A DNA stretch of 61,843 nucleotides from a virus (Duplodnaviria > Caudoviricetes): the IMG/VR virus record IMGVR_UViG_3300042360_000496, positions 1-61,843 of that record; one strand, given 5' to 3'. The notes under the pieces were generated by a model. It searched no databases. It was not told the DNA's origin and saw only the letters and a list, made by a program, of their open reading frames with translations. Below are positions 597 to 61,516 of the stretch, piece after piece (position 1 is the stretch's first letter; every line of letters starts with the position of its first letter). The translations under genes and the position numbers were made by a program.

Positions 597-1332
597 TATT
601 ATTTTAATAGCGATTTACCTATTTAATTAAAAATTAAAGGGTTTAAGTACAACCCGAGTCGTTTTTGAGTCAATTGTTAAGACGACTATAGTCGGTTTTA
701 AACGATTTACGGAGTAAATACATGATTATGACTCAAAAACTTGGGTTGTTTTAGAAAAATCGCTGTGCAGCTGTGTGTGCATGGGTATATTTAATATAAA
801 CTACTAATTAAATATATATATTTTATTTAATATTTACTAGTTTACTATTCTAAGAAGGTAATAGGTCCCGAGTGAGGGGTCTTAACCTTGGGCTTAAAAA
901 CGACTCTGCGGACGACGGCTGGACGCTTATAAAATCGGCTTAGTATACTATGTTAATGCGTAAAGCGTATTTACGTATTAACAAAACGTTAATCTAAAAT
1001 GGGTCTATAAAAGTTACTATAAGCTGCACCTATGTATTTCGCTTTAGTCCAATAACCTAAACATAATATTAATCATATTTAATAATCCGTTTATTAAGTT
1101 AAAGTTAAGGAAAACCGCTATATTTTCTTTAACTATACCTTAATAAAAGCCCCCTTTTAAGCCTAAAATTCACTATATACGTATTAACGTTGTGCTAATA
1201 TTAAGATAACTCGTATATAGCTATACGTATACACTCACCTTTAAGGTTAGGTTAACGAGACTATACGTATTACTCAGTAAATACTAATAATAAATACGTA
1301 AAGCCCTTTACTAAATAAGGTATATACTAGTT

Positions 1333-1730
1333 CGGTATACGGTATACGCTATACGGTATACCGTATACCGTATAGGCTAACTAGTATATACTAATAACCT
1401 ATACCGTATTACGTATATAGGTATACTATACCGTATTACGTATATAGGTATACTATACCGTATTACGTATATAGGTATACTATACCGTATATACGCTATA
1501 CGGTATACTATAACGTATATACGCTATACGGTATACTATAACGTATATACTAGTATACTATAACGTATATACGCTATACGGTATACTATAACGTATATAC
1601 TAGTATACTATAACGTATATACGCTATACGGTATACTATAACGTATATACGCTATACGGTATAGGTTAACTAGTATATACGGGAGGTAATAGGTATATAC
1701 GCTATACGGTATAGGTTAATAGGTATATAC
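1333..1730. repeat. Tandem array of TATACG/GTATAC-rich units (3 x 27 bp at 1399-1479, then interleaved 28- and 22-bp units)
   Basis: ctataccgtattacgtatataggtata x3; repeated cgtatatacgctatacggtatactataa and cgtatatactagtatactataa. Confidence 0.9.
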
Positions 1731-2019
1731 CTCCTACCCCTTAAAATGCGTATTTACTGAGGGGCTCACGTACAAACTCACCCTCTCCATACTTTTTTCT
1801 CGAAACATTCCGTAAATACGTCTTTTATTTTTATGTCTTACCAGAACAAAAATCCCCTCAAAACAAACGAATATTTTCGAAAGACCTCAAAAACAAATCC
1901 ACCCGAAAACCCATATTCCCTGCAAAAATTTCCAGCAAAAATCCCGAAAACCTCAGTATTTACGTAATACTTCCCTCATTAATTAGGTATATTTAATGTA
2001 AACAACGCACTTTCCCTTT

Positions 2020-2793
2020 ATGGATATAGACACCTCTCCAATACCTATAATCGAAGCCTCAAACACCTCTTCTTACGAGCAATACTCATCAATCTCACCT
2101 CTGGAGGAAGATCAAGAAGATTCTTCGTCTTCTTGGACTAATGAGTCTGAAGATAATAGTGGAAACCTCGATAATAGTGGAAACGTCATATACAACAATT
2201 CTACACTTATACCCATCCGACAACTTTCGAAGACCAACAGCGGTCTGCTAGTTGACCTTGCTACAAAAACTGTTACAAATACCTTAAATGGGTTCGTCAT
2301 AGATTATTCCGATTGGGACTTTACGTCCTTATGGGCAAAGAAAGCTGCTTTACAGAGAAATCCTAGAGCGTTCAAGAAAATAGAGCCATTGAAAATTGCC
2401 AAGATCATCGCTCTGATTAGCAATACTGGGCTTCAACACTTCGCTGCTTCGATGTTGAATGAGAATTGGCCATACATCGACAAGAATTATATTCAGACGA
2501 TGCCGAAGCTTGAAGAATGGCTCAATTTCGCACAAGATTGCTTCTCTGATACTTTAGAGGGGGAAGTTATCAGAAGAGCTTTTGTTGGGGTGAAGGTTCC
2601 TGTGTTTTTCCAGGGAATACAATGTGGAGAAGAAACAAGATATTCGGATTCTCTTGCACTTGCCGTCCTGAAGAAGAGGAGACAGGAATATCGCGAAGGG
2701 AAGACCGAAGGAGCTGCCAAGGAATCTGGTGGAGTTCTAGTTGTCAATCAAACATCGAATTCGAATGATGAATGGGAGAGGTTGACGGAATGA
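2020..2793 (+). CDS. terS: Terminase small subunit with acidic low-complexity N-terminal extension
   Basis: Immediately upstream of TerL; C-terminal LEGEVIRRAFVG..PVFFQG..G...YSDSL pattern typical of this TerS type. Confidence 0.75.
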   Translation: MDIDTSPIPIIEASNTSSYEQYSSISPLEEDQEDSSSSWTNESEDNSGNLDNSGNVIYNNSTLIPIRQLSKTNSGLLVDLATKTVTNTLNGFVIDYSDWDFTSLWAKKAALQRNPRAFKKIEPLKIAKIIALISNTGLQHFAASMLNENWPYIDKNYIQTMPKLEEWLNFAQDCFSDTLEGEVIRRAFVGVKVPVFFQGIQCGEETRYSDSLALAVLKKRRQEYREGKTEGAAKESGGVLVVNQTSNSNDEWERLTE

Positions 2794-4340
2794 ACATGAC
2801 GTCAACCTCTAGCATATCCCCTCCCGTCAACAAAATCCGATGGGAAAGTCGAGACGATACTCTCAAGGCAGTTTACACGAATCCTGAGGATGCTAACGAA
2901 GTTGAAGCAACATGGGCTCCTCAAGATGGATCTCAAGATTTGTTTCTCAGATGTCCTGTGTTTGAAGTTTTATTCACGGGAACTCGTGGACCTGGAAAAA
3001 CAGATGCTCTTCTTATGGACTTCGCGAAGAACGTGGGAAAAGGTTACAAAGAAGAATGGCGTGGGATTCTTTTTCGGAGGACTTATCCGGAACTTTCAGA
3101 TGTTATAGATAAATCAAAGAAATGGTTCAGTAAGATTTTCCCACGAGCTAAGTTCAATGAGTCGAAGAATTTCTGGTTGTTTCCTGATGGAGAGAAGCTT
3201 TTCTTCCGACATTTTGAACGTCCTGCTGATTATTACAGTTATCACGGACATGCGTATCCTTGGATAGCTTGGGAAGAGTTGACAACGTGGCCAGATGATA
3301 AATGCTACAAGTCTATGATGTCTTGTGCGAGATCGACTATTGTTGGTGTACCCATCACTGTCAGAGCAACAACGAATCCTTATGGTATTGGGCACAACTG
3401 GGTGAAGTCAAGATTTAGGCTTCCTGTTCCTCCGAATAAGAAAGTTGGGAAGATAATATATGATTCTGTCGATCAAGATGACAAACCAGAACCACCAAGA
3501 GTTGCTATCCATGGAGATTTGAATGAAAACAAGATTCTCCTACACTCCAATCCAGACTACATAGACCGAATTAGAGCTTCTGCTAGAAATAACTCAGAAC
3601 TTCAAGCTTGGTTGTATGGATCGTGGGATATTGTCGCTGGAGGGATGTTCGATGATATTTGGTGCGACTATAGAGATAAGATAATTGTTCCACGATTTGA
3701 AATCCCAAAAACATGGAGAATCGACAGATCTTTTGACTGGGGGAGCTCAAAACCTTTCTCTGTTGGTTGGTGGGCTGTCAGTGATGGTGGTGATGTTCTT
3801 CTGCCCAATAATAAGGTGATGTCCACGATGAAAGGTGACCTCTTCCGTATAAATGAATGGTATGGGTGGTCTGGGACTCCGAATGAGGGGACTAAAATGT
3901 TGGTAGATGAAATTGCTAAGGGGATATTGAAAAGAGAGAAATCGTGGGGCATGGATAAAGGTAGAGTCGTTGCTGGACCTGCAGATAGTTCAATATTTGA
4001 CGAAGAGAATGGAAATTGTATTGCTACAGATTTTCAAAATCTTGGAATATATTGGGAGAAAGCTGACAAGAAGCCAGGATCCAGGAAACAAGGTTGGGAA
4101 CAAGTTAGGAAAAGACTTAAAGCCACATATAACAATGGAGCTCCTAGAGAAGAAGCAGGACTGTTTATCTTTGATCATTGCACTCAATGGACGAGAACAG
4201 TTCCTTGTCTACCGAGAGACGACAAAGATATTGATGATGTTGATACAGAAGCTGAAGATCACATCGGTGATGACACGAGATATAGGGTTAGATTCGAATC
4301 CAGAGAGATAATCCAAAGCAAGTCGATAGGGATGTTCTAA
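2790..4340 (+). CDS. terL: Terminase large subunit
   Basis: Walker A GTRGPGKT, Walker B WEELT, coupling motif ATTNP, RNase H-like FDWGSSKP and EDHIGD; ATGA overlap with terS (track start 2772). Confidence 0.95.
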   Translation: MNMTSTSSISPPVNKIRWESRDDTLKAVYTNPEDANEVEATWAPQDGSQDLFLRCPVFEVLFTGTRGPGKTDALLMDFAKNVGKGYKEEWRGILFRRTYPELSDVIDKSKKWFSKIFPRAKFNESKNFWLFPDGEKLFFRHFERPADYYSYHGHAYPWIAWEELTTWPDDKCYKSMMSCARSTIVGVPITVRATTNPYGIGHNWVKSRFRLPVPPNKKVGKIIYDSVDQDDKPEPPRVAIHGDLNENKILLHSNPDYIDRIRASARNNSELQAWLYGSWDIVAGGMFDDIWCDYRDKIIVPRFEIPKTWRIDRSFDWGSSKPFSVGWWAVSDGGDVLLPNNKVMSTMKGDLFRINEWYGWSGTPNEGTKMLVDEIAKGILKREKSWGMDKGRVVAGPADSSIFDEENGNCIATDFQNLGIYWEKADKKPGSRKQGWEQVRKRLKATYNNGAPREEAGLFIFDHCTQWTRTVPCLPRDDKDIDDVDTEAEDHIGDDTRYRVRFESREIIQSKSIGMF

Positions 4341-4436
4341 ACAAAGTATTTAAAAATACGTCGTTTGGCTTAGTTATAAACAACGAAATTAAACCGATAA
4401 CTAATTTGTGAAAACTAACTAAAAAGGAAAATTAAA

Positions 4437-8259: not shown

Positions 8260-8857
8260 GTTTTTATTTATTCTTGGTGGAATTTGTCCCACTCCATATG
8301 CTCTGGATGATGTGGTCAAATCAAAATTTGATCAAAGTATCTACGATAAGATTTTAGAAATCGACTATGAACCCTTCTTAGATGAAAGATACGATTGGAT
8401 TCCTTTCTACAAGAGAATGAAACTAGTCGACAAACATGGAGATTGGTGGCAATTCAATTTCAGACCAAAAGCAAGACAAGCCATCCGAGACTATATAACA
8501 TGGACGATCAACAAATTCAAAGAAGATGAGTTTGAGGTTCACGTCCTAGCACATAGTCTCGGTACTTGGGCTTTGCTAGGCTCAGAAGTCCGCATTGAAA
8601 AAGCTTTTTTGTTTGGTTCTCCAATAGGATCTAGATCTTGGATTGTTAGAAATAGTGTGAACTTCGAATTGAAAAATGCTTTCTCAAAATTCTCTTGTAA
8701 AGAGCTTTTCTATGGTTACAATAAACATGATTTTGTAAGTTCAAGAACACCTAATGTTGGTTTTCTACAGAAGTTTACAAAAAGGCTAATATTAAAAGAA
8801 ATAAGTTCTGGTCATGATCTAAAAAATTACTTAGACAAATACAAAGAAGATGGATAG
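8237..8857 (+). CDS. Alpha/beta-hydrolase fold protein
   Basis: Nucleophile elbow AHSLG, FGSP, candidate Asp (HDFV) and His (SGH). Confidence 0.7.
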   Translation: MQVNLRPKFLFILGGICPTPYALDDVVKSKFDQSIYDKILEIDYEPFLDERYDWIPFYKRMKLVDKHGDWWQFNFRPKARQAIRDYITWTINKFKEDEFEVHVLAHSLGTWALLGSEVRIEKAFLFGSPIGSRSWIVRNSVNFELKNAFSKFSCKELFYGYNKHDFVSSRTPNVGFLQKFTKRLILKEISSGHDLKNYLDKYKEDG

Positions 8858-10853: not shown

Positions 10854-11392
10854 TGCAAATTGAAGAAGCTTTACTACAGTTGGACGTAGCAAATGATGAT
10901 CAGTGGACTCAAGATGGTTTGCCAAGAGTTGATGTCATACAGATATTAACAGAAAACAATACCGTCACCAGAGCTGAAATCACAGCTGTCGATCCAACTT
11001 TCTCAAGATACCCAACTAACAAAGAGGAAATACCAAATGAAAGCGAAACCATCAACCAAGACTCCCCCAAAGCAGAAACCAACAAGCCCAAAAAAGAAGA
11101 AGTAGAAGCAAAAGTTGAAGCTGTTAAAGCTGAACTTGCTGAGCTCGTTTCTGAAAAAGCTTTCTTGGATAAAAAAGTTGAAGACAAACAAAAAGAATTA
11201 GATCTTTTGTTAGATTCTTTAACTGAAGAATTCCCAGCTTTATCTCCTGCACAAGCAATACAAGATTATTTGCAAAAAAGTGCACAAATAAGAGCTGCTA
11301 GAAGTGGATCTGTTGAGGATGTTGTTAAAAGAGCAATCGCTAGCAACACTAAAATAAATTCTCCAAAACCCATTATAACACCAGCACAATGA
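10853..11392 (+). CDS. Head-region protein (LD..ND..WT.DGLP motif, coiled coil)
   Basis: Translationally coupled; motif familiar from related siphoviruses. Confidence 0.6.
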   Translation: MQIEEALLQLDVANDDQWTQDGLPRVDVIQILTENNTVTRAEITAVDPTFSRYPTNKEEIPNESETINQDSPKAETNKPKKEEVEAKVEAVKAELAELVSEKAFLDKKVEDKQKELDLLLDSLTEEFPALSPAQAIQDYLQKSAQIRAARSGSVEDVVKRAIASNTKINSPKPIITPAQ

Positions 11393-12235: not shown

Positions 12236-12642
12236 TGGCAACACTATCTGAGAAAATGGCCAAAGTTACTAAAAAACTTATAGAAAAAGATGGTAGATTA
12301 GTCACCATAATAAAATCTAATAAAACAGATACAGACCCTGTAAAGCCTTGGAGAAAGAATGAGACACCTTGGATAGATGGAACAGAGGTTCAAGTAAAAG
12401 CAATGTTCGTCACACCAAAATCCCCGACAGATTTTGGTCAAGGGTCGGTCACAGCCTTGGGCTTAGTTCCCTTGGATGCTAGATTAAATTGGTTGATATT
12501 CGCAGAGGATAGCTTTCCAGGAGAAAACTATAAAGACTATGAATACATAAAAGACGGAGATGAGATCTGGAAAATAACTGTCCACGAGACTTTAAAGCCA
12601 GGAGAAAAGGCAATTCTACACTTAATGGGGATTGAACAATAA
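12232..12642 (+). CDS. Putative head closure/stopper protein
   Basis: Position; LIEKDGR, DP.KPW, LKPG motifs. Confidence 0.65.
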   Translation: MMATLSEKMAKVTKKLIEKDGRLVTIIKSNKTDTDPVKPWRKNETPWIDGTEVQVKAMFVTPKSPTDFGQGSVTALGLVPLDARLNWLIFAEDSFPGENYKDYEYIKDGDEIWKITVHETLKPGEKAILHLMGIEQ

Positions 12643-13069: not shown

Positions 13070-14527
13070 ATGCCGAACACCTTAGACTCTAATACAACTG
13101 GACTAAGATACGCCACAGAAGATACAATTGGTGTTTTGCCAGGATCTGGAGTTGTTTGGAAAAGTTTAGAGCCAAACTCTTATGGAGACTTTGGAGCCCA
13201 ATATACTCAGGTTGCTAGAAACCCAATTAAACCTGACAGACAAAGAGTTAAGGGTGTTCTCACTGACAAAGAGTCTTCAGCAAATTTTCAAACAGATTTT
13301 ATCGGCTCACAATTACTAGATCTTTTATCTGGTTTCTTTTTTGCTGCTTGGAGAGATAAAACCTCTTCCTCTCCAACAGCTGTTTCCGGGACTGCCTACA
13401 CTCTTTCTTCTGTCACAGGTTTTGTAAACAATAACTTGATTTTGGCAGAAGGATTCGCGATTGCTGGAAACAATGGTTTCAAGCCAATCACTGTTTCTGG
13501 TTCAACACTTGTCGCTTCTGGTCTTGCAATTGAAACACCACCAACAACTTCTAAAGTTACAAAAGTTGGCCAGAGAGGTGCTTCTGGAGATATTACTTTA
13601 ACAGTTTCTGCTGGAGTTGGAACACTTGGTTCTACAACTTTAAACTTCACAACCCTTGGGCTTATCGCAGGTGAATGGCTCTGGATAGGTGGAGACGCCA
13701 CTGCTAATAAGTTTGCAACAGCAGCAAATAATGGTTTTTACAAAATCAAAACTATCGCAGCAAATGCTATTGTATTTGACAAAATACCAACTGGAGCTAC
13801 AACTGACACTGGTTCAGGAAAACTTATTGATCTCTATTTTGGTTCTATTCTTAAAAATGAGAGTGATACAACCTTAATTGTTAAGAAGAGTTTTCAATTT
13901 GAAAGACAATACACCTCAACTTTGTTTGAGTACATTGAAGGATGCGTTGCCAATAAATTAGACTTTGATATCAAAACAGCAGACAAAGTAGTTTGTGAAA
14001 TGGGTTTTGTTGGGATCGATGCTGAAGATTTAACCTCTGCCAAGGCTGGTACTCACCCAACTTCAACCTTTGGTACAGCTTATAACAGCTCCTCGGACTT
14101 CATGAAGCTTTCACTCTACGATGCTTCTGGAAATAACCTCAGCTCCTATATTACCGATCTTAAAATCTCTATCAGTAATAATGCCACGACATTGAAAGCA
14201 GCTGGTACTCTTGGAGGATTTGACATCAATGTGGGGGACTTTATGGTGTCTGCCTCGTTAACAGCTTACTTCGTCAATAACCTAGCTGTTGATGCAATCA
14301 GAAATAACACTTCTGTTTCTCTAAGCTTCGCTTTGGGTCAACCAAACGATAGTCAAGGATGGATTTTTGATATTCCAAATCTAACTCTTGGTGATGGTAG
14401 AAAAGCTGTTGAAAAAGATAAACCAATTACCCTCCCTTTAACAGCTGAAGCCGCAGCAGACAGCGTCTACAACACAACTATGGCGATCACAAACTTCAAA
14501 TATCTTCCTGCTTTAGCTTATAATTAA
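13070..14527 (+). CDS. Major tail tube protein with internal Thr/Gly-rich insertion domain
   Basis: DSN.TGLRY..E, LEPNSYGDFG, R.R.KG motifs; precedes the chaperones and tape measure. Confidence 0.85.
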   Translation: MPNTLDSNTTGLRYATEDTIGVLPGSGVVWKSLEPNSYGDFGAQYTQVARNPIKPDRQRVKGVLTDKESSANFQTDFIGSQLLDLLSGFFFAAWRDKTSSSPTAVSGTAYTLSSVTGFVNNNLILAEGFAIAGNNGFKPITVSGSTLVASGLAIETPPTTSKVTKVGQRGASGDITLTVSAGVGTLGSTTLNFTTLGLIAGEWLWIGGDATANKFATAANNGFYKIKTIAANAIVFDKIPTGATTDTGSGKLIDLYFGSILKNESDTTLIVKKSFQFERQYTSTLFEYIEGCVANKLDFDIKTADKVVCEMGFVGIDAEDLTSAKAGTHPTSTFGTAYNSSSDFMKLSLYDASGNNLSSYITDLKISISNNATTLKAAGTLGGFDINVGDFMVSASLTAYFVNNLAVDAIRNNTSVSLSFALGQPNDSQGWIFDIPNLTLGDGRKAVEKDKPITLPLTAEAAADSVYNTTMAITNFKYLPALAYN

Positions 14528-14551: not shown

Positions 14552-14980
14552 ATGACATCACCTTATAAATTATTTGAAACAAACAAGGACTTTGAAAAAT
14601 CCGGAATAACACTAGATTATGGTGATTTCTGGATAAAAATTGCAAGAGCTGGTGGAGCAAACAAAAAATATGAAAAAATTTTGCAAGCTAAGCTCAGACC
14701 ATTCCAAGCCCAATTGAGAACAAACACCTTGGATAATGCAGTTGCTGAAAGACTCTATAGAGAAATCTATGCTTCAGCAGTTATTCTCGGATGGGGATCG
14801 AAGGAGTTTGGTGAAGGAAAACTTGTTGGAAAAGATAATGATCCTCTTGAGTTCAATATTGATAATGCTATTGCTTTATTGAGTGATCTCCCAGACTTGT
14901 TCAATGACATAAAAGAACAATCAGAGAAAGTTGCCTTATTTAGAAATGAGGAGCTTAGAGAAGACGCAAAAAACTCGTAG
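14552..14980 (+). CDS. Tail assembly chaperone (gpG-like)
   Basis: IARAGGANK, LGW, LPDLF motifs; ends at a slippery site. Confidence 0.85.
   Translation: MTSPYKLFETNKDFEKSGITLDYGDFWIKIARAGGANKKYEKILQAKLRPFQAQLRTNTLDNAVAERLYREIYASAVILGWGSKEFGEGKLVGKDNDPLEFNIDNAIALLSDLPDLFNDIKEQSEKVALFRNEELREDAKNS
14968..14974 (+). other. -1 programmed frameshift heptamer A AAA AAC
   Basis: The -1 frame is open from 14974 (LVDVLKYQLEHG...) into ORF 15100..15309. Confidence 0.85.
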
Positions 14981-42949: not shown

Positions 42950-42973
42950 AATAAAATTAATAAGGTTATTTTG

Positions 42974-44027: not shown

Positions 44028-44560
44028 CAACAAATTACCAAATAAAAAGAACAAGAGAAGCAGCTGACGTTAAAAGGTTTCACACCTTTCCATCCATTAA
44101 AGAGCAAACTGTTGGACAGCATTCATTCAATATGTTAACTATGCTGTTCCAATTTGTCAAGGAACCGAGTTTAAATCTGATAAAGGCTATAACTTATCAT
44201 GACTTTGCAGAAAGATGGGTTGGAGACATTCCAGCAACTGCTAAGTGGGGAAATGAAGAGTGGGGAAATCTAACAGAGTCCATTGAAGAATCTGTTAGAT
44301 TAAAACTCGGATTCATTTCTGGTGAATTGACCGAAGATGAAAAGAACATTCTAAGTTTTCTAGACACCTTAGAGCTGTTCTATTGGGCTTTGGAAGAAGC
44401 CGAATTAGGAAACAAAAATGGGTACTTCCTTGCCAAGAAAGTAAACAAGATTGTCTTAGAAAAATATGCAAAAACTAGGTTACAAACTACCATGAGCAGC
44501 TTATTATTTAGAATAGATTTACAACACCAAAGAACAGAAGATGGAGATGCATTCAATTGA
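44024..44560 (+). CDS. HD-domain 5'-deoxynucleotidase-like protein (YfbR family)
   Basis: V.RFH, TV..HS, HD.AE...GDIP, D.LE. Confidence 0.8.
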   Translation: MTTNYQIKRTREAADVKRFHTFPSIKEQTVGQHSFNMLTMLFQFVKEPSLNLIKAITYHDFAERWVGDIPATAKWGNEEWGNLTESIEESVRLKLGFISGELTEDEKNILSFLDTLELFYWALEEAELGNKNGYFLAKKVNKIVLEKYAKTRLQTTMSSLLFRIDLQHQRTEDGDAFN

Positions 44561-45111
44561 ACATATACGACTCATTCGACGCGATGATTGATTTAGAAAC
44601 CTATGGGAAAGCTCCAGGGTGCGGAATCCAGCAGATCGGTTTAGTCTTCTTTAATAGGGATGAACTAATAGATATACAACCTTATGATTGTCACCAATGG
44701 TTCATCGACAGACAGTCTAGTACTGACCTTGGGCTTAAAGAAGATTCAGAAACTTTAAACTGGTGGAAGAAACAAAGTGTTGAAGCCCAAGAAGGGTTCA
44801 ATAGACCTGGAATCTCAATTACAAAGGCTCTGCGAGAGTTTGCTGAACTTGAAGAATGGCAAAATGTTAGGTGTGTTTGGTCTCATGGAGCATCCTTTGA
44901 CATACCTATCATAGGGTGGGCTCTTAGGGAGGCTTTAATAAAGGCTCCTTGGAAATACAGCTCTATAAGAGATACAAGGACAATATTTGAGATAAGCCCC
45001 CCCGACGACATAGAAAATAAACTCAAACACTCAGCTCTACAAGATTCTATAACACAAGTTAAGGAAGTCCAAAACAGTTTTAAAAAACTAAAGGAGAAAT
45101 TAAATGTCTAA
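44557..45111 (+). CDS. DEDDh 3'-5' exonuclease (Rv2179c-like)
   Basis: MIDLET, W..GA.FD, RD.RT, H.AL.D. Confidence 0.85.
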   Translation: MNIYDSFDAMIDLETYGKAPGCGIQQIGLVFFNRDELIDIQPYDCHQWFIDRQSSTDLGLKEDSETLNWWKKQSVEAQEGFNRPGISITKALREFAELEEWQNVRCVWSHGASFDIPIIGWALREALIKAPWKYSSIRDTRTIFEISPPDDIENKLKHSALQDSITQVKEVQNSFKKLKEKLNV

Positions 45112-45619: not shown

Positions 45620-45969
45620 TTAGAGATTTATTATTTAAAGTGGATCTAGAGGAGTTGGCAAAGAGGGAAGTTTCTGAACTCTGTAAAAGAGGTAGAGATT
45701 GGTTAGATTCTATTCATTACCAAGAATGGAAAGCCCAACAATTGAACCAAATGTCACAGTTCAAATTTAAACACAAAGATGAGTTTAGTTTCGTTGTTGT
45801 TGATCGTGTAACAAACTTTTGTTATTATGCTAAGGACTACAAAGAAGCTCTAGGAGTTTGTGCACAAATAGTAAAGGATTCAAAAACAAATTTAGATGGT
45901 AAGTTAACAATTTCAAGAGTTGTCAACACTCTAAGAAAATACGATGAAAAATATGAGTGGGAGAATTAA
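45616..45969 (+). CDS. Hypothetical protein
   Basis: Coupled ORF. Confidence 0.55.
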   Translation: MIRDLLFKVDLEELAKREVSELCKRGRDWLDSIHYQEWKAQQLNQMSQFKFKHKDEFSFVVVDRVTNFCYYAKDYKEALGVCAQIVKDSKTNLDGKLTISRVVNTLRKYDEKYEWEN

Positions 45970-47849
45970 TGCTTCAACTATCTATATTTGAACCAGATAC
46001 AGAATGGTCACCACCAGATGTTTCTATACTACCTTCTTGGGAAAATTCTTCCTATGTAGGAATAGACATAGAAACACATGACCAAGCCATATCAGATGGT
46101 TTTGGTTCTGGTTGTAAATGGAAGAACAGTTATATTGTAGGAATCTCTTTTTGTCTTGAAAATTACAAACCATTCTATCTCCCAATAAGACATTTCGCAG
46201 GAGGAAACTTAGATAGAGAGAAAGTTTTTGACTATCTAAAAGACCAAGCTAAAAAATTTAAAGGAGAGTTGATTGGAGCAAATCTACAATACGATCTTGG
46301 ATACCTACTTGACGAGGGAGTTTGGTTTAGAAATGTTAAATTCTTTAGAGATATACAAATAGCAGATCCTCTCATATATGAGCTACACGATTCATATTCT
46401 CTCCAGTCAATAGCCAAACGATATGGTCTTGGAGGTAAGGATGAAGGGGTTCTTTCTAGCTTTGCTAAAATGCATAAATTAGATCCTAAAAGAGATCTAT
46501 GGAAAATGAACAGTAAGTTCGTCGGCAAATATGCCGAACAGGATGCTCTACTCCCCATGCAGATCTATGAAAAGCAAAGAGTTCATATAGTCAAGAACGA
46601 ACTTCAGGAAGTCTTTAAATTGGAGAGTAGAGTCCTCCCAGTTCTAATTAAAATGAGGGATCGTGGTGTAAGAATAGATACTGACAAATTAAAATACATA
46701 GAAAAATGGTCGATAGAACAGGAGAAGAATTGTCTTTCTGAGATCCACATGCGTACAGGAATCTCCTTGGGCTTGGGGGACATAAATAAAAAACCTCCGC
46801 TTGTTAAAGTCTTAGAAACAATAGGAATAAAGGTTGAGAAGACTCCATCAGGTCAACCAAAGATAGATAAAAATACACTTAAAGATATTAATCACCCTGT
46901 TGCAGAAGCTCTAGCAAGGGCAAAGAAAGTAAACCATCTTAGAACAAGTTTTGTTAAATCCATCCAAGACAGGCTTATAGAGGGAAGAATACATTGTACA
47001 TTCAATCAATTAGCAAGAGAGAATGATACAAAAGATGGTATTGCTGGTGCTAGGTGGGGAAGGATGTCCAGTGAACAACCAAACCTTCAACAACAACCTT
47101 CTAGAGATGATTTTGCTTCAATGTGGAGGTCTATCTATCTTCCTGATGAGGGTCTACAATGGGGAAGTTTAGACTATTCGCAACAAGAGCCAAGAATGTT
47201 AGTCCACTTTGCTGCTCTCTTGCGACTACCCAAAGCCCAGGAAGCATTGGAGAAGTATAAATCAGACCCAAATATGGACAACCATCAGATGATGGCTGAC
47301 ATGACAGGCTTGCCAAGAAAGAATGCAAAAGATATTTTCCTTGGTAAGTGCTATGGGATGGGTGGAGCAAAGTTTTGTAAATCTGTTGGGCTTCCTACAA
47401 GTTTCATGACAAACGAAAAAGGAATCGTCATAGAGATAGCAGGAGACGAGGGTCAGGAGATGTTAAATCAGTTTGATGATAGGCTCCCTTTTGTTAAAGG
47501 TATGGCTAGAAAAGCCCAAGATGCGGCTGCAAGAAGAGGATACATCAAAACCATATCTGGAAGGAGATGTCACTTTCCAACAGAATTAGATGGTAGATTT
47601 GGATGGACACATAAAGCTCTTAATAGGCTCATCCAAGGAAGTAGTGCAGATCAGACTAAGATGGCCATGGTTGCTCTAGAAGCAGCAGGATACCCTCTAC
47701 AGTTACAAGTACACGATGAAGTTACAGCTTCGATTCCAAATAAGGAGGTGGGAGAAGCTATGGCAGATATTATGTCAAACTGTGCTAATCTTACTCTGCC
47801 GTTTAAGGTAGATTTAGAAATCGGTGATAGTTGGGGAGGTGTTAAATAG
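45969..47849 (+). CDS. polA: Family A DNA polymerase with 3'-5' exonuclease
   Basis: DIET exo I, GR.SS..PNLQQ, DYSQQE.R, K...LG..YG, QVHDE. Confidence 0.95.
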   Translation: MLQLSIFEPDTEWSPPDVSILPSWENSSYVGIDIETHDQAISDGFGSGCKWKNSYIVGISFCLENYKPFYLPIRHFAGGNLDREKVFDYLKDQAKKFKGELIGANLQYDLGYLLDEGVWFRNVKFFRDIQIADPLIYELHDSYSLQSIAKRYGLGGKDEGVLSSFAKMHKLDPKRDLWKMNSKFVGKYAEQDALLPMQIYEKQRVHIVKNELQEVFKLESRVLPVLIKMRDRGVRIDTDKLKYIEKWSIEQEKNCLSEIHMRTGISLGLGDINKKPPLVKVLETIGIKVEKTPSGQPKIDKNTLKDINHPVAEALARAKKVNHLRTSFVKSIQDRLIEGRIHCTFNQLARENDTKDGIAGARWGRMSSEQPNLQQQPSRDDFASMWRSIYLPDEGLQWGSLDYSQQEPRMLVHFAALLRLPKAQEALEKYKSDPNMDNHQMMADMTGLPRKNAKDIFLGKCYGMGGAKFCKSVGLPTSFMTNEKGIVIEIAGDEGQEMLNQFDDRLPFVKGMARKAQDAAARRGYIKTISGRRCHFPTELDGRFGWTHKALNRLIQGSSADQTKMAMVALEAAGYPLQLQVHDEVTASIPNKEVGEAMADIMSNCANLTLPFKVDLEIGDSWGGVK

Positions 47850-47919: not shown

Positions 47920-49077
47920 ATGCTATTGTTTGAAAATATTGGTGTCATGGAAATGGAATTCCTAAGGACTTTTGGAGCTTCTGTTAAGAATACTGAAAAT
48001 CCGATAGGCTTCTTTGGGACAGGTCTTAAGTATGCTATCGCTGTTATTTTAAGGAATAAAGGATCGATAAAAATCTTTTCTGGACTCGACGAATACAACT
48101 TCAGTCTAGAAAAGAAAATTCTAAGAGATCAACCATTCGACATTGTCACAATGAACGGCTTCTCCTTGGGCTTCACAAGCGAATTGGGAAAGACTTGGGA
48201 ACCATGGATGGCTTATAGAGAGCTTTACTGTAACCTCCTAGACGAAAAAGGAAGTTTGATGCATTCTCTCGCAGGTCTAGAAAATGGAGAAGAAAATAAA
48301 ACTAAGATTTATGTAGATGGGTTGGATCAGATTTACTACGATCACAATAAATACTTTTTAGACGGAACGCACGATGCTCTCTCAGAGGGAGTAGAGATAT
48401 CCAATAGACCAAATAAGTATCAATACTATAGGAATGTGCGTGTGTGGACTGAACCATCTGCTCTGACTTACAACTTCATAAAAGAAATTGCTCTCACAGA
48501 AGACAGAACTATTAAGTACACCTCATCGTTAGAGAATATTGCAGGATCTATTGTTAGATTAAAAGACAAAAAACTGTTGAAAGCCGCTTTATCAGCTGGG
48601 GAAGGAAAATTAGAAAATAAATTCAACTATAAATATTTTTCTGGGCACACTGAAGAATTTTATGAGGTCACAAAATCTCTTGGTTCTGACGCAAACTTCT
48701 CTGCCCAAGCTGTTCTTGCTGCTAAGACATCATACAGTGATGTTTCTTGTGAAGGCCTCACTCCAAGAGAACAAGAAATATTTAATAAAGCTGTGAGGAC
48801 AATTGATTCTCTGAACCTTGGCTTTACAAAAGACCCAGACTATTTATTCGTTCATTGTTTTCCTGGGGACAATAGCAAACTTGCTGAAGTTGTTGATGAC
48901 AGAATTATAATATCTAAAGAAGCTTTCAATTCTGACTTTACAGCAACTCTGCTGGAAGAGTTAGTACATCTAAACAAAGGTTATTACGATTGCACCAGAA
49001 ACTTGCAGACCTATCTATTCCAGATGGTTGTAAAGTTAGCTGAAGAGAATTTAATCAAACTAAGAGGAACCATATAA
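47920..49077 (+). CDS. GHKL-type ATPase domain protein
   Basis: G.S.K, IG.FGTGLKYA.A, REL..N..DE; C-terminal LLEELVH. Confidence 0.7.
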   Translation: MLLFENIGVMEMEFLRTFGASVKNTENPIGFFGTGLKYAIAVILRNKGSIKIFSGLDEYNFSLEKKILRDQPFDIVTMNGFSLGFTSELGKTWEPWMAYRELYCNLLDEKGSLMHSLAGLENGEENKTKIYVDGLDQIYYDHNKYFLDGTHDALSEGVEISNRPNKYQYYRNVRVWTEPSALTYNFIKEIALTEDRTIKYTSSLENIAGSIVRLKDKKLLKAALSAGEGKLENKFNYKYFSGHTEEFYEVTKSLGSDANFSAQAVLAAKTSYSDVSCEGLTPREQEIFNKAVRTIDSLNLGFTKDPDYLFVHCFPGDNSKLAEVVDDRIIISKEAFNSDFTATLLEELVHLNKGYYDCTRNLQTYLFQMVVKLAEENLIKLRGTI

Positions 49078-50907: not shown

Positions 50908-51800
50908 AAATCCCATCCTTCAGAACTTTTTTTAAACGACATGGTTTTGATGGAGTGGTTTCAACTTTTGCTCCTTTAGTTCTGGCACCGATAGCTCTCA
51001 CTGGAATGCTTTCTAACAGCCCAACATACCCCTTAGTTATGATGGGTCTCTGGAGCAATTCCCTCTTCCAAGGAGTGAAGCAAGCCTCACCCAGCAGAAT
51101 CTTTTCCTATTCCCTTGCCCTTCTATTTGGGCTTAACTGGTGTAGAGAGAAACTCCAAAATTTTTTGCCAAAAATTCCATTAAGAAATAATAAAGAATCC
51201 AATAGAAAAGCTGGAGAAAAGAAGTCTGAGAGAAAGATTGGAGATTTTGAAAAGCTTTTCGGCAAACTTATTTATCCAGCTTTAATGATGATAACTTATC
51301 TGGCATCTGGATCTTACATGAATAAAAGTGCTAAGCCCATAGAGGGGAGCTTGACCAAGTTTGATTGGTCAAAGTATAAGAATTATTTGTCACACAATTT
51401 TAAAGCTGAGACTCAATGGTTAAAAAATCCATTTAAAAGTCTTCCTCTTGGACTCAACTTCTGTCAGATGATTCTGAGAGGATCCTCAAGTGCCTTATTT
51501 GGGTTGGCATTTATTCAATCGGGACTTAACTTTGATGAGAATTCCATCAGTCGTATTGCGGACAAGATACTCTGGGCAGGAGACTTTCTTGGTGGTGCAA
51601 CAGATATTGCTACAGGTTGCAATCGCGAATTGATTAAAAAATATGGAGTGTTGGCTGCTTGTCTAGAGTCTGGAGGAGGTGGAGCTGATATTTACGCAGG
51701 AATAATGAGGGATTCAAATGTTGGAATCACCTCTAGATTCGCTGCCACTGCTCTCAGTCAGATGGCAGGTGGATTGAAAGGGTTAACTAAGTCCTATTGA
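50904..51800 (+). CDS. Multi-pass membrane hypothetical protein
   Basis: AAGGAG RBS; several hydrophobic and Gly/Ala-rich helices. Confidence 0.65.
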   Translation: MKIPSFRTFFKRHGFDGVVSTFAPLVLAPIALTGMLSNSPTYPLVMMGLWSNSLFQGVKQASPSRIFSYSLALLFGLNWCREKLQNFLPKIPLRNNKESNRKAGEKKSERKIGDFEKLFGKLIYPALMMITYLASGSYMNKSAKPIEGSLTKFDWSKYKNYLSHNFKAETQWLKNPFKSLPLGLNFCQMILRGSSSALFGLAFIQSGLNFDENSISRIADKILWAGDFLGGATDIATGCNRELIKKYGVLAACLESGGGGADIYAGIMRDSNVGITSRFAATALSQMAGGLKGLTKSY

Positions 51801-54150: not shown

Positions 54151-54336
54151 ATGTCAAAAATACAAAATCTTTATGATTCTCTTACAGAAGCGGAGAAAAA
54201 AGAACTTCACCACATAGTTTTCGTTGAGAATGGGAGGAAGGCAGGATCCAAGAAATCCGAAATTAAAGCTGCAACCTCAGCTAAGAACGGGATCCTGGGT
54301 GGACGTCCTAAATCACTTCATCGTCAAAGTAAATAA
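54151..54336 (+). CDS. Small basic protein with NG..GGRPK motif, possibly DNA-binding
   Basis: G.K.G..KS..KA.....NG..GGRPK. Confidence 0.65.
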   Translation: MSKIQNLYDSLTEAEKKELHHIVFVENGRKAGSKKSEIKAATSAKNGILGGRPKSLHRQSK

Positions 54337-56623
54337 CATTCCATGGGATATTTGTATGAAACAAATCATCCCATGCTTGTCTACAAAAATCCAACTCTGG
54401 GAGAGAAATATAATATTTTCTCTCCCTTATTAGCATTCCCTGATCGTTTGTAGACTCAAACATTCTTTGATAGCTAACAATCTGTCCTTTTGTAACTTTA
54501 CTGATAAATTTACCGAAGCTGGTCATTGAACAACGTCTTTGAATCCCCAATTTTTTGAGATATTCTACATATTCGTAAAATAACACGTCCTTACAAATAT
54601 CTTTCTTCCAAATTCCTTCTTGCAATCTGTTAAACCACCACTCTTCATCAGCATTAAGTGAAAATATCTTTTGCTCAGTTAATGCCTCTGTTTTGGGTAC
54701 AGAGCGAACGTTAAAGTTAGTTAAATCCACTTGCAGCAAATAATAAAGAAGATGATTGTATCCTTTTCCCTCGGACAAATCTGTGTGGATCCTTTTGAAA
54801 TAATGACTATTCTGCATCTGGCACACACCAACATCCAAAACAAAGAATCTTCTTTCATCAGTTCCTGCGGGGACAACCCAGGAATTGTTACTTGCTAAAA
54901 TAACGTGTGTACAATTCAAAGAACTCTCCACGTCAATTCCTTTAGACTCTATTGATATTGACTCTTCAGTGATTAAAGTTTTTAAAACACTTTCATGCTT
55001 CTTGTCACCCGCATAGAAAGCCTCATCTCCAAATAAAATGACGCAATCTCTAAGGTGAGCATTAAAAGATCCAACAAGATGTTTAGGATCGCTGACTTGC
55101 ATGTAGTGACGCCCAAAGAGATAACCAAATTGATTGGCGAAGAAAGATTTTCCTGTACCTTGTCTCCCACGGAGAACAATAGCAGTTTGACCAGGAGAAT
55201 CAGGTTTCTGTATAGCTCTTGCCATCCATCCGATAAGATAATTATAATGTTCTTCATCGTCTTTACAGACGTTGTTTCGGAGGTGCAGGAGAAAGCTTTC
55301 ATGATTCTTGCCAGGAAGAGGTTCAACAGCAAATCCTTTCCACAAATTATAAGAATTTCTAACTTCCTTTCCTGGAGAGAACACAACCGTGTCGAACTGT
55401 CTCCTTTTTGGATTTTTTAACCACCATTCCCCCACCTGCATCAACTTGGGCTTGCCATTCTTGTCCGCACCAAATTCTACATATTGATGGAGATACCTAT
55501 TGCGAAAGTCTGCAAAAGATTGAAAGCTAAGTTTTAATCTGTTAAGACCATAGTCCATCGTCTCTTCCACAATTTTGCATTTTCCTCCAATATTAGAGAT
55601 GACTGCGAATTGATCGTTGAGCTTCCTTAACCAAGGATCTACAGCTTCTTCTACAGCTCTTTGTATTTGTCTTAACGCATATCTTTCCGAGGATCCTCTC
55701 TTCTCCAGGACGCTCTCAGAGATTAAGAAGTCCTGATCTGTTATGACGGAATACATAACTTCTTCAGGCACACTACAGCGTACCATCGCACAGAGTGCAT
55801 CAAATAACCAAGCTGATCGGCTGTTATCTCCCTTTTTTACCTCATCAGGATGATGACCATTTACAATTATGACTTTTGTTCTGGGAGGAACATCCCATTC
55901 GTCCAGATCATCTATGGAACACAATCTTTTTATGTTCCCAGATATTTCTATCTCAAGCCCAAAGGACATGCCTGTTGTTTGCAGAAGAGGGGCAGCCGAA
56001 AATTTATTTAACTCGTAGATATTATTCGGGTCAAACTCAACAACCTCCGACCAGATCGGGACTCGACCTTTCTTCCTCTTTAATTCATTGGGAATATTAA
56101 GCGTTCCAGGGAGTCTACAGAGTCGGTCTATATTGTGACAATGATCTGCCTTAAAAGTTATTTCAAGCTGCATGTTATATCTAGCAGCTTGTTCCGCTCT
56201 TTCCAGGTTTCCATCAATTTCTATCGGATATCGCAATTTCCAGAAAACTTGGTATCCACCTCCAGAAGAGACAATGATCGTAGGTGGAGGGATTTCCTTG
56301 GGCATTCTATATAAAGATTGCAACAAAGCTTGTCTCTCTTCGCTAGAACCAGAAAATGTATCAATGTCGACGTGTAGATAGTCAACTTGTTTTATTTCGC
56401 TTCTATCTGCTTTCTTGAATACAGGCTTTGCTACAGGATTAACATGCCAATAAATATTACGGACTTCATTGTAAGATTCTATCCAATTGAAACATTCCTC
56501 CTCTTGGGCAGGATAAAAAGTTTTTGTTTCAATATTTTTCTGTTCTACATCTATCGCTGTTAGAGCCCATGGACCATCCGGATGAACTTTTTGTAGGAAG
56601 TCTATCGAATCTCTAGTAGGCAT
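54308..56623 (-). CDS. Primase-helicase (RepB-like primase + SF3/NrS-1-like helicase)
   Basis: HVDID, SSGGG.Q..W, R..RLPG..N; Walker A GRQGTGKS, DEA, ASN, ERRF. Confidence 0.9.
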   Translation of the reverse strand: MPTRDSIDFLQKVHPDGPWALTAIDVEQKNIETKTFYPAQEEECFNWIESYNEVRNIYWHVNPVAKPVFKKADRSEIKQVDYLHVDIDTFSGSSEERQALLQSLYRMPKEIPPPTIIVSSGGGYQVFWKLRYPIEIDGNLERAEQAARYNMQLEITFKADHCHNIDRLCRLPGTLNIPNELKRKKGRVPIWSEVVEFDPNNIYELNKFSAAPLLQTTGMSFGLEIEISGNIKRLCSIDDLDEWDVPPRTKVIIVNGHHPDEVKKGDNSRSAWLFDALCAMVRCSVPEEVMYSVITDQDFLISESVLEKRGSSERYALRQIQRAVEEAVDPWLRKLNDQFAVISNIGGKCKIVEETMDYGLNRLKLSFQSFADFRNRYLHQYVEFGADKNGKPKLMQVGEWWLKNPKRRQFDTVVFSPGKEVRNSYNLWKGFAVEPLPGKNHESFLLHLRNNVCKDDEEHYNYLIGWMARAIQKPDSPGQTAIVLRGRQGTGKSFFANQFGYLFGRHYMQVSDPKHLVGSFNAHLRDCVILFGDEAFYAGDKKHESVLKTLITEESISIESKGIDVESSLNCTHVILASNNSWVVPAGTDERRFFVLDVGVCQMQNSHYFKRIHTDLSEGKGYNHLLYYLLQVDLTNFNVRSVPKTEALTEQKIFSLNADEEWWFNRLQEGIWKKDICKDVLFYEYVEYLKKLGIQRRCSMTSFGKFISKVTKGQIVSYQRMFESTNDQGMLIRERKYYISLPELDFCRQAWDDLFHTNIPWNVIYFDDEVI

Positions 56624-57521: not shown

Positions 57522-58098
57522 ATCTCCTCCTTATGTCGGCCTTGATAGAGTCAATAACGTTGTTATTGACTCTACTCAGTTCCAAGCTATTACAGATGAT
57601 TTCCGATTGCACCCCTTGGGCTTCAGGCCAGACTGCAACAACGTCTTCGTAGTATTTAGAGTCTTCGATTAAAATATAATAGTTTTTTCTGATTCTGTCA
57701 TAGTTCTGACTGAGAGATTTATCAAGTCTTTCGTGATTTTTTAAAAGTTCCAAGATTTCTTCTGGAACTTCCCACCCTACCCAATTCAAAGCTTTATGCG
57801 TTGTAGGGAAAGTTAATACATTTTCTGTTGTGAAAGTGATAACAGCGTCTTTAAATTCAAATTCTATTTTAGAATTCTTGATTTTAGGGTTACAAGAAGA
57901 CTTAAGACAGTGATGTTTTTCCAGGACTTCAGAATCTTTTTTCGGTAATTCTTTGTCTAGGAGCTTTTTGAGAGCTTTTTCGATTTTTTCTTTTCTTTCA
58001 CTAGAAAGTTTATTTTCTTCTTCTGTTTCTTTTATTAATCCCTTTACAAGATTCTTTAGGATGTATCGGTGATTTTTTGTTAACTTAGTTTTTGCCAT
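57514..58098 (-). CDS. Putative Nmad5-like (nucleotide-modification-associated) protein
   Basis: N-terminal .KLT...R..I and C-terminal V...WPEA pattern; GAAATGGAGAA RBS. Confidence 0.5.
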   Translation of the reverse strand: MAKTKLTKNHRYILKNLVKGLIKETEEENKLSSERKEKIEKALKKLLDKELPKKDSEVLEKHHCLKSSCNPKIKNSKIEFEFKDAVITFTTENVLTFPTTHKALNWVGWEVPEEILELLKNHERLDKSLSQNYDRIRKNYYILIEDSKYYEDVVAVWPEAQGVQSEIICNSLELSRVNNNVIDSIKADIRRRCG

Positions 58099-58206: not shown

Positions 58207-58668
58207 TTATACCTGACTATAAATCAACACTAAAGGTTCCAGCATCGTATAAACACCAGTTACAAAGAATTCTCTGACTGAGTCTCCATTTTTTAGAATT
58301 AGTTTTATGACTCCTTTGTCTTGTTTTTGATATGTAAGACCGATGGATTCGTCGAGATATCCATCATTACTGTCTTTGATGATAGTCATGAAGGATTCTG
58401 CTTTCCCGACGTATTTTGGCTCTTCAAGGGACATTAGTTTAGTATCATATCTTGAGAAAAAAGATTTAGTTTCCGGATTTAGATATTTTATTCTGTTTAT
58501 GTCAAAGCTGAAATTCAAGATTGAGACGGTGATTTGATTTTCAGTTTCTTTAATTTTGAAATCTTTGGGAGTTAAGCCCAAGGAAAGGAGATAGTCTCTG
58601 GGAGATTGAGGTTTGAGATTTAGAGGGAAGAATTTTTTGGATTTTCTTTTTGGTTTTTGAGTTTTCAT
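58207..58668 (-). CDS. Hypothetical early protein
   Basis: ORF with basic N-terminus. Confidence 0.6.
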   Translation of the reverse strand: MKTQKPKRKSKKFFPLNLKPQSPRDYLLSLGLTPKDFKIKETENQITVSILNFSFDINRIKYLNPETKSFFSRYDTKLMSLEEPKYVGKAESFMTIIKDSNDGYLDESIGLTYQKQDKGVIKLILKNGDSVREFFVTGVYTMLEPLVLIYSQV

Positions 58669-60893: not shown

Positions 60894-61184
60894 CTAGGAT
60901 TCTATTTTCCAATTGTGCCAGCGGATTTTACCTTGGCTGTTATGATAGTATTGTTCACGTTTCAATTTGGTGGTACCGATTTTGACGGTCACAGAGAAGA
61001 AATAACCGTCGTAGAAAACAGAAATGTTTGGTTTAATTTCAATTTCTTTGCCTTCAGTTAGGTTATTTTCATCTTCTTCATAAGATTTTCCTAGTTCTAA
61101 AGCTAACTTTTCGCTTTTTTCAATAAAAGCTAAAGCTAATTTAAAAGCGTCGGCTTTAATTTTCTTTTCGTTAGAGGTTTTCAT
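60894..61184 (-). CDS. Hypothetical early protein
   Basis: Start corrected from 61196; -10 box at 61212-61217 and palindrome at 61220-61231. Confidence 0.65.
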   Translation of the reverse strand: MKTSNEKKIKADAFKLALAFIEKSEKLALELGKSYEEDENNLTEGKEIEIKPNISVFYDGYFFSVTVKIGTTKLKREQYYHNSQGKIRWHNWKIES

Positions 61185-61234
61185 AGGTTTCTCCATTTCT
61201 GATTTATTAGAATTATACTCTAACTAGTTAGGTT

Positions 61235-61387
61235 TTAACTTAGCTCGTCATTTACAATTATTTCTATGGAAACTTCATCAGTTTCTTGCTCTATTAAAAA
61301 TTTAAAGGTTTCGGCTACCTCTTGTGGGGAGTAATTAGCTTTAAGTTTAGTTATTACTTTTTCTAATTCGTCCATTGGGTTTGTCAT
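61235..61387 (-). CDS. 50-aa acidic protein MTNPMDELEKVITKLK... (below ORF-track cutoff)
   Basis: Open frame read by hand; fills the gap in the early gene string. Confidence 0.55.
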   Translation of the reverse strand: MTNPMDELEKVITKLKANYSPQEVAETFKFLIEQETDEVSIEIIVNDELS

Positions 61388-61414
61388 AATTTAATTTGTA
61401 TATATGAAGGGGGA

Positions 61415-61471
61415 TTTAGAGCGGTTAAGCTCTCTAGAGCGGGAGTTTACCCGCTGAAGAGAATTTAATTT
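61415..61471 (-). repeat. Twin-hairpin intergenic element, copy 3
   Basis: tttagagcggttaagctctctagagcgggagtttacccgctgaagagaatttaattt. Confidence 0.9.
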
Positions 61472-61516
61472 GTATATACAGAGTTCGATAAATTTAGGTT
61501 AAGCCCAAGGGTGGGC

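Follow-up and report, generated by a model that had tools for sequence, protein, structure and literature searches.

An octamer repeated throughout a freshwater siphovirus genome appears to follow the phage replication module and may be read by its primase-helicase

Why should an eight-base word that base composition predicts once or twice be repeated, mostly inside genes and on both strands, from one end of a phage genome to the other? The question is raised by the octamer TTGGGCTT (complement AAGCCCAA) in IMG/VR virus record IMGVR_UViG_3300042360_000496, a tailed phage (Duplodnaviria; Caudoviricetes) that we analyzed over its full 61,843 bases (hereafter the window; the whole record, ~99% complete and without end repeats). 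An initial annotation, made from the letters alone, had counted the word by hand and offered four candidate functions, namely a primase signal, a Chi-like recombination signal, a loading site for a phage DNA-binding or modification protein, and mimicry of a host self-recognition or uptake sequence; the comparative evidence presented here favors the first of these and contradicts the last. In our view it is highly probable that a protein of the phage's own replication module reads the word, and that the word is neither a host signal nor a by-product of composition. Whether the reader is the primase-helicase and the step primer initiation, with the word serving as template recognition site, we regard as an evenly balanced proposition, drawn by analogy with a characterized phage primase.

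Count and anatomy of the octamer

A pattern search finds 37 copies in the window, 21 on the plus strand and 16 on the minus strand, and every coordinate and orientation in the earlier hand count (37 of 37) proved exact. The zero-order expectation of one or two copies was likewise borne out (1.4 by our computation), and dinucleotide shuffles gave a mean of 2.31 octamers (standard deviation 1.54, maximum 7, n = 100). Shuffling of synonymous codons within each of 84 open reading frames (ORFs; greedy longest-ORF calls, not gene-finder output), which keeps every protein and the codon usage of each gene, gave a mean of 6.13 (standard deviation 1.63, maximum 12, n = 1000); this null is conservative because the intergenic sites and the word-inflated codon usage are retained in it. 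The over-representation thus persists under codon-preserving shuffles (37 vs 6.1), with the count outside the null. Among 8-mers with at least eight copies the octamer ranks first (codon-shuffle z ~18), and the next ranks are occupied by its own overlapping shifts. All z values given here derive from 50–150 shuffles (1000 for the main count), under a null in which codon pairs are free to change.

Nineteen of the sites lie on the sense strand of an ORF (6, 10 and 3 in the three frames) and 15 on the antisense strand (2, 10 and 3), the remaining three being intergenic or partial. The word therefore uses all three frames on both gene strands, as had been proposed from a few translated examples, and because the codon-preserving null is also exceeded six-fold, we conclude, in agreement with the initial annotation, that the target of selection is the DNA rather than the protein. 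The plus-strand sites are at 888..895 (intergenic), 8566..8573, 12457..12464, 13656..13663, 16748..16755, 20073..20080, 21828..21835, 24039..24046, 28528..28535, 33760..33767, 35189..35196, 40762..40769, 41192..41199 (intergenic or partial), 44383..44390, 44729..44736, 46767..46774, 47386..47393, 48166..48173, 51127..51134, 55446..55453 and 57616..57623; those on the minus strand are at 11084..11091, 14706..14713, 17834..17841, 23277..23284, 24406..24413, 27897..27904, 31090..31097, 32132..32139, 35285..35292, 35564..35571, 44783..44790, 45731..45738, 47512..47519, 55955..55962, 58574..58581 and 61501..61508 (intergenic). Two sites, 55446..55453 (antisense) and 55955..55962 (sense), fall inside the primase gene itself.

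The word is sharply defined, as would be expected for a protein that reads eight bases. The frequent extension of the octamer that had been remarked upon is real (23 copies of CTTGGGCTT and 12 of CCTTGGGCTT), whereas the many one-mismatch variants said to accompany it are not: the 24 single-base variants occur at the null level, with the exception of TTGGGCAT (6 vs 1.4) and, weakly, CTGGGCTT (5 vs 1.5). Besides the octamer, its core TTGGGC is strongly enriched (67 observed against a codon-shuffle mean of 20, z 13.6), as is TTGGGCA(G); the shorter TGGGC is enriched as well (102 vs 53), and GGGC overall is not (130 vs 116). The base that follows GGGC is A or T in 95% of cases, and the base that precedes it is T in 78%. 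The former figure arises in part because short GC palindromes are strongly avoided in the window (GCGC 5 vs 71 expected, CCGG 7 vs 71, GGCC 22 vs 71); thirteen 6-base palindromes are absent altogether, and two others, CAGCTG (32 vs 7.1) and CTGCAG (20 vs 7.1), are over-represented. Outside the octamer, information content is at background except for a C at position −1 (23 of 37) and the 5' flank, which from −7 to −1 is C-rich and poor in G (16 of 259 bases vs 71 of 259 in the 3' flank). The octamer is not palindromic and has no conserved hairpin partner.

Only one near-identical relative was found, an 8-kb contig (L052) that is 97.0% identical to the window. It keeps all eight of the window's TTGGGC sites, among them that of the octamer at 8566..8573, and has one extra, and the columns occupied by the word show one difference in 54 where 1.6 would be expected; a comparison over 8 kb is without power in either respect. 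Relatives of the window's DNA polymerase drawn from viral contigs reach at most 54% identity, and a search of viral contigs with the window's kinase for 5-hydroxymethyldeoxyuridine (5-hmdU) gave no locus. Reads of four lake runs vary at 545 places, of which the 40 listed all fall at 51.8–52.9 kb.

The core word among related phages

The comparison covers a panel of 21 genomes, which was picked by homology to two window proteins and is not a blind survey. In the window, the replication module comprises a 771-amino-acid primase-helicase (54308..56623, minus strand), a family A DNA polymerase (PolA; 45957..47849, plus strand) and a plus-strand group at 28306..32739 that encodes an SNF2-type helicase, proteins like gp32, gp33 and gp34 of Pam3, and a RecD-like superfamily 1 helicase (31474-32739). 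Eleven genomes, the window included, have a primase 40–50% identical to that of the window or the window's own, and in eight of them the core TTGGGC or YTGGGC is enriched, with a TTGGGC z of at least 6.7 in six and a close variant in two. Observed counts over codon-shuffle means are 128/53 in G416 (z 13.3), 119/45 in G417 (z 14.3), 74/37 in G418 (z 8.5), 88/41 in Pseudomonas phage MP1412 (z 8.2) and 96/47 in Bordetella phage CN1 (z 6.7); the variants are CTGGGC in ZC01 (225/127, z 12.4) and TGGGCA in G419 (159/70, z 12.9). Primases in all seven of these relatives are 46–50% identical to the window's. Those of G416–G420, five viral records reached by way of PolA, are 48–50% identical by protein search and 46–49% by tblastn, and those of ZC01, MP1412 and CN1, all Mesyanzhinovviridae from the phage collection, 47–49%. 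TTGGGC is enriched in none of the ten genomes without a close primase homologue (G406, G408–G412, G414, NP1, CAjan and NrS-1; z −1.3 to 3.0).

Neither base composition nor host accounts for this distribution. The TTGGGC-enriched relatives, MP1412 and CN1 included, have a GC content of 57–64%, as against 37% (36.8%) for the window. The host comparison (host names are as written in the records) is clearest among phages of P. aeruginosa, whose words differ by module: NP1 has TGTGGTCA (37/8.1) and a TTGGGC z of −0.2, MP1412 has CTTGGGC and ZC01 has CCTGGGC. Conversely, phages that have the same module carry the same word even when their hosts differ (E. coli, Pseudomonas, Bordetella and lake hosts; GC 35–64%). 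The window itself appears to be the product of a module swap. Its major capsid protein is 66% identical to that of NP1, and structural genes are all that it has in common with the group of phages to which NP1 belongs; replication and modification genes like its own are found instead in G413 and G415. It thus has NP1-like head genes, yet its word matches Mesyanzhinovviridae-like replication genes. As far as genome comparison can tell, the word goes with the replication module rather than with host or base composition.

Other searches started from the head protein. Among 80 viral contigs with relatives of that protein, none carries the octamer at comparable density, and the top word in 61 loci of ~15–22 kb usually has a codon-shuffle z of 4.5–9 (maximum 10.7), where thirds of the window give 8.6–12.9. 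An outlier among the capsid-relative loci, with 14 copies of TGACCACA vs 1.1, belongs to a parallel lineage with a word of its own. TRACCACA (reverse complement TGTGGTYA) is present in 34, 34, 27 and 23 copies in G406, G408, G409 and G410, whose GC content ranges from 35% to 58%, against 3–6 for reversed-word controls, and the codon-shuffle z for this family is 14–15 in the two complete genomes, G406 and G408. The word is equally conspicuous in two Queuovirinae, E. coli phage CAjan (NC_028776.1; 56 copies, 27 and 29 per strand, control 6; TGTGGTTA 47 vs 8.3, z 21) and Pseudomonas phage NP1 (NC_031058.1; 48 copies, 16 and 32, control 8; TGTGGTCA z 16). It is enriched in all six genomes with an NrS-1-like primase, and enrichment of TGTGGT is confined to that group. 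The numbers of copies in the two lineages are of the same order, with 37–75 TTGGGC per genome in excess of the null (by subtraction) and 34–56 TGTGGTYA in complete genomes.

The phages of this second lineage encode an 822-amino-acid primase-helicase with a weak match to the NrS-1 helix bundle (E 9e-6, below the Pfam cut-off) and a DUF3987 domain. The G406 protein matches the NrS-1 primase gene by tblastn (E 1e-7) and chains named 'Primase' in the PDB (E 1e-12), and its homologues in CAjan and NP1 are 42–52% identical to it; a family B polymerase, DUF669, a ligase and Gat-QueC are also encoded in this group. For the NrS-1 primase-polymerase, the recognition sequences given are 5'-TTTGGTTA-3' and 5'-GTG(A/G)-3' (PMC8718748). 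TGTGGTTA is identical to TTTGGTTA at seven of eight bases and contains GTGG, a form of the second site. In NrS-1 itself (AB746912.1), three of the five TRACCACA copies lie within 240 bases, at 17210–17445, just downstream of the primase gene (14895–17051), and this cluster may mark the NrS-1 origin. A likeness of TRACCACA to the DnaA box was considered and dropped, as the registers mismatch.

We also considered a 'KTGG' core common to all lineages and dropped it, since several relatives have unrelated top words. Weaker candidate words occur in G411 (ATTGGTCG, 18 vs 4.4, z 9.1) and in G413 (GGTGGCA, 33 vs 10.8, z 9.4; GTTGGCA, 27 vs 9.7, z 8.4).

Candidate readers of the word

Because the core tracks the module that bears the primase across genomes of 37–64% GC, and because the word of the sister lineage matches a known primase site, the primase is the favored candidate. 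The window protein (PHROG 1829 'DNA primase', E 2e-87) has a RepB'-type archaeo-eukaryotic primase (AEP) domain followed by a helical bundle in residues ~1–330 and a DUF5906/VapE-like superfamily 3 (SF3) helicase in residues ~436–690, with Pfam matches to RepB_primase (E 1e-7) and DUF5906 (E 2e-21). Residues 436–689 match PDB chains 6k9c and 6k9e, named 'Primase' (E 3e-11), which we take to be NrS-1 entries. An AlphaFold model of residues 1–430, built on a six-sequence alignment (mean predicted local distance difference test score 71.6), has an alpha/beta domain followed by a helical bundle, and its best Foldseek matches are RSF1010 RepB' structures 3h20 (E 1.5e-6) and 3h25 (TM-score 0.69 on the target, root-mean-square deviation 3.6 Å over 201 columns); the further matches after RepB' are other Prim-Pol domains. 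By sequence, then, the primase domain is of the RepB' type and not of the NrS-1 Prim/Pol type. A presumptive cognate primase is accordingly encoded in the same genome as the word, and by analogy with AEP primases, in which binding to the recognition site is the task of the helix bundle domain (PMC8718748), it could read the word specifically.

Three known systems bear on how such a primase might act. The NrS-1 primase-polymerase likewise joins a phage AEP primase to an SF3 helicase and has an 8-base template word, but the window word is spread genome-wide on both strands and is unrelated in sequence (five of eight bases in the best register against TTTGGTTA). RSF1010 RepB', which has the most similar fold (catalytic domain plus helix bundle) as well as the RepB_primase match, differs in acting at two 40-nucleotide inverted repeats, ssiA and ssiB, of a single origin, where the window has 37 copies of a non-palindromic 8-mer and a helicase fusion. 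RSF1010 is replicated by RepB' in leading-strand mode. The sites of DnaG- and T7-type primases are also sequence-specific template words that set the starts of lagging-strand primers; they have three bases, occur frequently by chance and leave no mark on composition, unlike a selection-maintained word of 6–8 bases. The T7 site is 5'-GTC-3' (PMC2910064), and RepB' is reported to start only at its specific 40-nucleotide sites (PMC8567376).

We infer the primase as reader, the strand it reads and priming as the step served, and picture the mechanism as follows. A primase that needs a long word would start primers only where the word occurs, and selection would therefore keep copies on both strands, at about one per 2 kb per strand, with those inside genes accommodated through synonymous codons and tolerated residues. 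A spacing of ~2 kb is of the order of one Okazaki fragment. As a genome of 37% GC is expected to contain a G+C-rich word only once or twice, copies selected in this way would stand out. The density on both strands (21 and 16 octamers; 32 and 35 TTGGGC) would suffice for repeated priming, the core occurring about once per 1.8–1.9 kb per strand over 61.8 kb. Considered strand by strand, its copies in the window are more evenly distributed than expected at random (coefficient of variation [CV] 0.69, P 0.025, and 0.68, P 0.011) and not significantly so when the strands are pooled (CV 0.91), a combination that fits use on one strand at a time. Evenness is more pronounced in the second lineage, with per-strand CVs for TGTGGTYA of 0.53 and 0.42 in CAjan (none of 5000 simulations was as low) and 0.44 on the richer strand of NP1. 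The strand read can only be guessed at: TTGGGCTT has four T on one strand and its complement AAGCCCAA has none, so that AAGCCCAA, being blind to thymidine hypermodification, is our guess.

More tentatively, one could envision that phage lineages with AEP primase-helicases each keep a private priming word of 6–8 bases genome-wide, on both strands and at about Okazaki spacing, which co-evolves with the helix bundle domain. The words would then be TGTGGTYA in Queuovirinae and YTGGGC in Mesyanzhinovviridae-type modules, sharpened to TTGGGCTT in the window phage, and hypermodified genomes may choose a word whose read strand lacks the modified base, as AAGCCCAA lacks T and TGTGGTTA lacks G in GA or GGC context. 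Usual primase sites of 3–4 bases leave no visible mark on a genome; if the proposal holds, complete 60-kb genomes of two phage lineages each have an eight-base word repeated 34–56 times within genes, and the specificity of uncharacterized AEP primases could be read from sequence, the top over-represented word predicting it. Replication initiation would then constrain synonymous sites in phages, and synonymous recoding or refactoring of such phages could remove sites needed for replication. Cultured and well-studied phages (CAjan, NP1, MP1412 and CN1) are among the members of these lineages. Among the papers listed, we found no earlier report of TTGGGCTT/AAGCCCAA in phage genomics, although subscription journals and supplements lay beyond the search and earlier notice is possible; nor did we find a phage paper on TAACCACA, TGTGGTTA, TGACCACA or TGTGGTCA as whole words, or anything relevant in the literature linking primase recognition to word over-representation in phage genomes.

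Several observations weigh against the primase as reader and against priming as the step. The link to the primase rests on analogy and co-inheritance, and since nearly every genome compared has inherited its primase along with the thymidine-hypermodification genes, PolA, the two helicases and the Pam3-like proteins, co-variation by itself does not distinguish the primase from these. G413 (z 1.7), G415 (z 0.0) and the partial G420 (z 2.0) have little or no TTGGGC enrichment despite primases 40–48% identical to the window's. The extension to eight bases and the C-rich, G-poor 5' flank were not seen in the relatives compared, for which reason we dropped the flank as support. Known primase sites mostly have 3–4 bases. 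For the window, the statistical case for even spacing is a modest one (P 0.01–0.03), and the GC-rich relatives show no such evenness. The orientation of the words does not switch along the window or along eight other genomes (label shuffles, P 0.5–0.99), although simple bidirectional or unidirectional use on the lagging strand would predict a switch. The data thus lend no support to a single origin whose lagging strands are fixed, and a priming role for the words would require that forks travel in either direction or that both strands receive primers. Neither octamer is iterated in NrS-1 (TTTGGTTA 1 vs 1, TGTGGTTA 4 vs 1), whose authors view TTTGGTTA as a possible origin signal (PMC8718748), and among the papers listed we found no biochemical work on RepB'-type phage primase-helicases of this group.

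The explanation that survives best beside the primase is that another replication or recombination protein of the same module reads the word, either as a phage-private Chi-like signal for the RecD-like helicase with a PD-(D/E)XK nuclease or as a loading or pausing site for the SNF2 or Pam3 gp32–34-like proteins. The tracking of the module fits this equally well, since the genes concerned are inherited with the primase in G413 and G415–G420 (where the PolA homologues are 42–52% identical to that of the window). A Chi-like signal, moreover, needs both orientations genome-wide, which matches the 21:16 ratio and the lack of polarity, and there is a weak Cas4-like match at 40969-41643 (E 0.009). 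Against this, the same phenomenon is seen in the TGTGGTYA lineage, where these window proteins have no homologues and the word matches a primase site, and primase-helicases are the kind of protein known to need a specific template sequence. To our knowledge no sequence-specific recognition has been described for SNF2 or Pam3-like proteins. A superfamily 2-type helicase is nevertheless encoded in both modules, so the primase is not the only protein class that they share. On balance, we consider a reader of this kind unlikely.

The word could instead direct or mark hypermodification, as a target of the 5-hmdU kinase and glycosyltransferase pathway or as a loading site for the DUF262 protein that guides modification nearby. 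The window has a full thymidine-hypermodification set of six plus-strand genes at 37366..44560: a 5-hmdU DNA kinase (37366-38304; PF18723, E 7e-40), a second kinase-like protein (38270-39283), a GT1/GT4 glycosyltransferase (39702-41126), a thymidylate-synthase-like protein (41930-42949), a DUF262/GmrSD_N protein of ParB-like fold (43021-43581) and an HD/YfbR-like protein (44006-44560). The ParB-fold protein thus stands beside a complete pathway, phage ParB-like proteins can activate T-dioxygenases (PMC13229309), the kinase gene is present in four of the five genomes G416–G420 (G416–G418 and G420) and in G413 and G415, and the word has all its T on one strand. Yet the kinase is absent from G419 (88% complete), where TGGGCA is strongly enriched, and present in G413 and G415, where TTGGGC is little enriched if at all. 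The initial annotation had also listed DUF262 among possible binders, a role that the comparison does not bear out: no homologue was found (E 1e-5) in any of 15 other genomes, among them the TTGGGC-enriched G416–G418, in a comparison that left out MP1412, CN1 and ZC01. A parS-like loading site was rejected for the same reason and because the word is a non-palindromic 8-mer, not a palindrome of ~16 bp. Published contexts of thymidine hypermodification are the dinucleotides TG and TC (PMC6449724), and those preferred by T-dioxygenases are NTC and NTG (PMC13229309). In the sister lineage, CAjan DNA is modified with deazaguanine in GA and GGC contexts while GT and GGT sites are cut normally (PMC7544227), and TGTGGTTA is therefore not a modification target. 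Some 37 modified sites would in any case give little protection from restriction, and we judge this explanation improbable. The glycosyltransferase, the second kinase and DUF262 are all without a homologue in the 15 genomes, which hints at a sugar-bearing 5-hmdU derivative particular to the window phage.

It is quite improbable that nothing reads the word and that it arises instead from context-dependent mutation or repair, or from a preference for certain codon pairs. Strong avoidance of GCGC, CCGG and GGCC does shape the GC-rich 4-mers of the window, and a second word family, TCCWGGA, is enriched as well; but the octamer uses every frame of both strands without enrichment of its single-base neighbors, its per-strand spacing is more even than random, and the core is enriched at 57–64% GC, in phages with other hosts and other avoidance patterns, and not in controls of equal GC. 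The second family is itself of some interest, TCCAGGA being enriched in the window (27 vs 8.5, z 8.2) and in the low-GC relative G408 (35 vs 6.5, z 13.3); one idea is that it arises from a repair or methylation effect linked to CCWGG.

Mimicry of a host signal, whether Chi for RecBCD or AddAB or an uptake or self-recognition word, would explain an over-represented octamer of the length of proteobacterial Chi that lies inside genes in both orientations, but it is contradicted by the P. aeruginosa phages, since Chi is set by the host enzyme and shared by the phages of one host while this word differs within one host species, is shared across hosts and follows the phage replication genes, and together with the lack of polarity towards the genome ends this makes it extremely improbable. 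The initial annotation had suggested looking for the same over-represented word in bacterial genomes, which might also have pointed to the host. Five genomes with relatives of the capsid protein have 43–179 copies of TTGGGCTT per 1.8–4.7 Mb, and neither these nor any of 401 Burkholderiales (G384, G299, G031 and G210 included), the one bacterial order widely covered, approach the density in the phage. The highest density of CTTGGGCTT among the 401 was ~75 per Mb (G203) vs 372 per Mb in the phage, and in a 171,739-base sample of G203 (58% GC), TTGGGCTT and its shifts were outside the top ten words at lengths 7–10.

Further features of the window

The window has the gene order of a siphovirus, with large terminase, portal, major head protein, tape measure and lambda-J-like tail tip followed by the replication genes; a ribonucleotide reductase is also encoded, and no tRNA genes were found. 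Its DNA is present in at least 20 public sequencing runs from 19 studies, of which 18 of 20 are labeled lake water or freshwater, and there is no RNA run among the 20 listed.

An intergenic array of short repeats occupies 1330-1730, with 11 exact copies of TATACGGTATA and five of CGTATATACG, several of them within repeats of ~28 or 50 bases. The ORF at 2020-2793, itself followed by the large terminase, is downstream of the array, which may be an origin or packaging-recognition region. A further conserved word, GAAATGGAGAA, precedes start codons by a few bases at 11 sites, on the plus strand at 357, 28291, 37010, 43018 and 47901 and on the minus strand at 58103, 59010, 60262, 60810, 61189 and 61749; it resembles an extended ribosome-binding site or, alternatively, the 3' portion of a promoter or leader common to these genes.

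Variation among lake populations includes two structural differences. In one lake contig, 364 bases are skipped at 49489-49854, and in two contigs from different runs ~783–792 bases (51025-51818, most of the ORF at 50904-51800) are replaced by 25–34 others. Read depth in one run is 40–144 over 51340-53340, and this rise over 51.3–53.3 kb suggests that the segment is shared with something more abundant.

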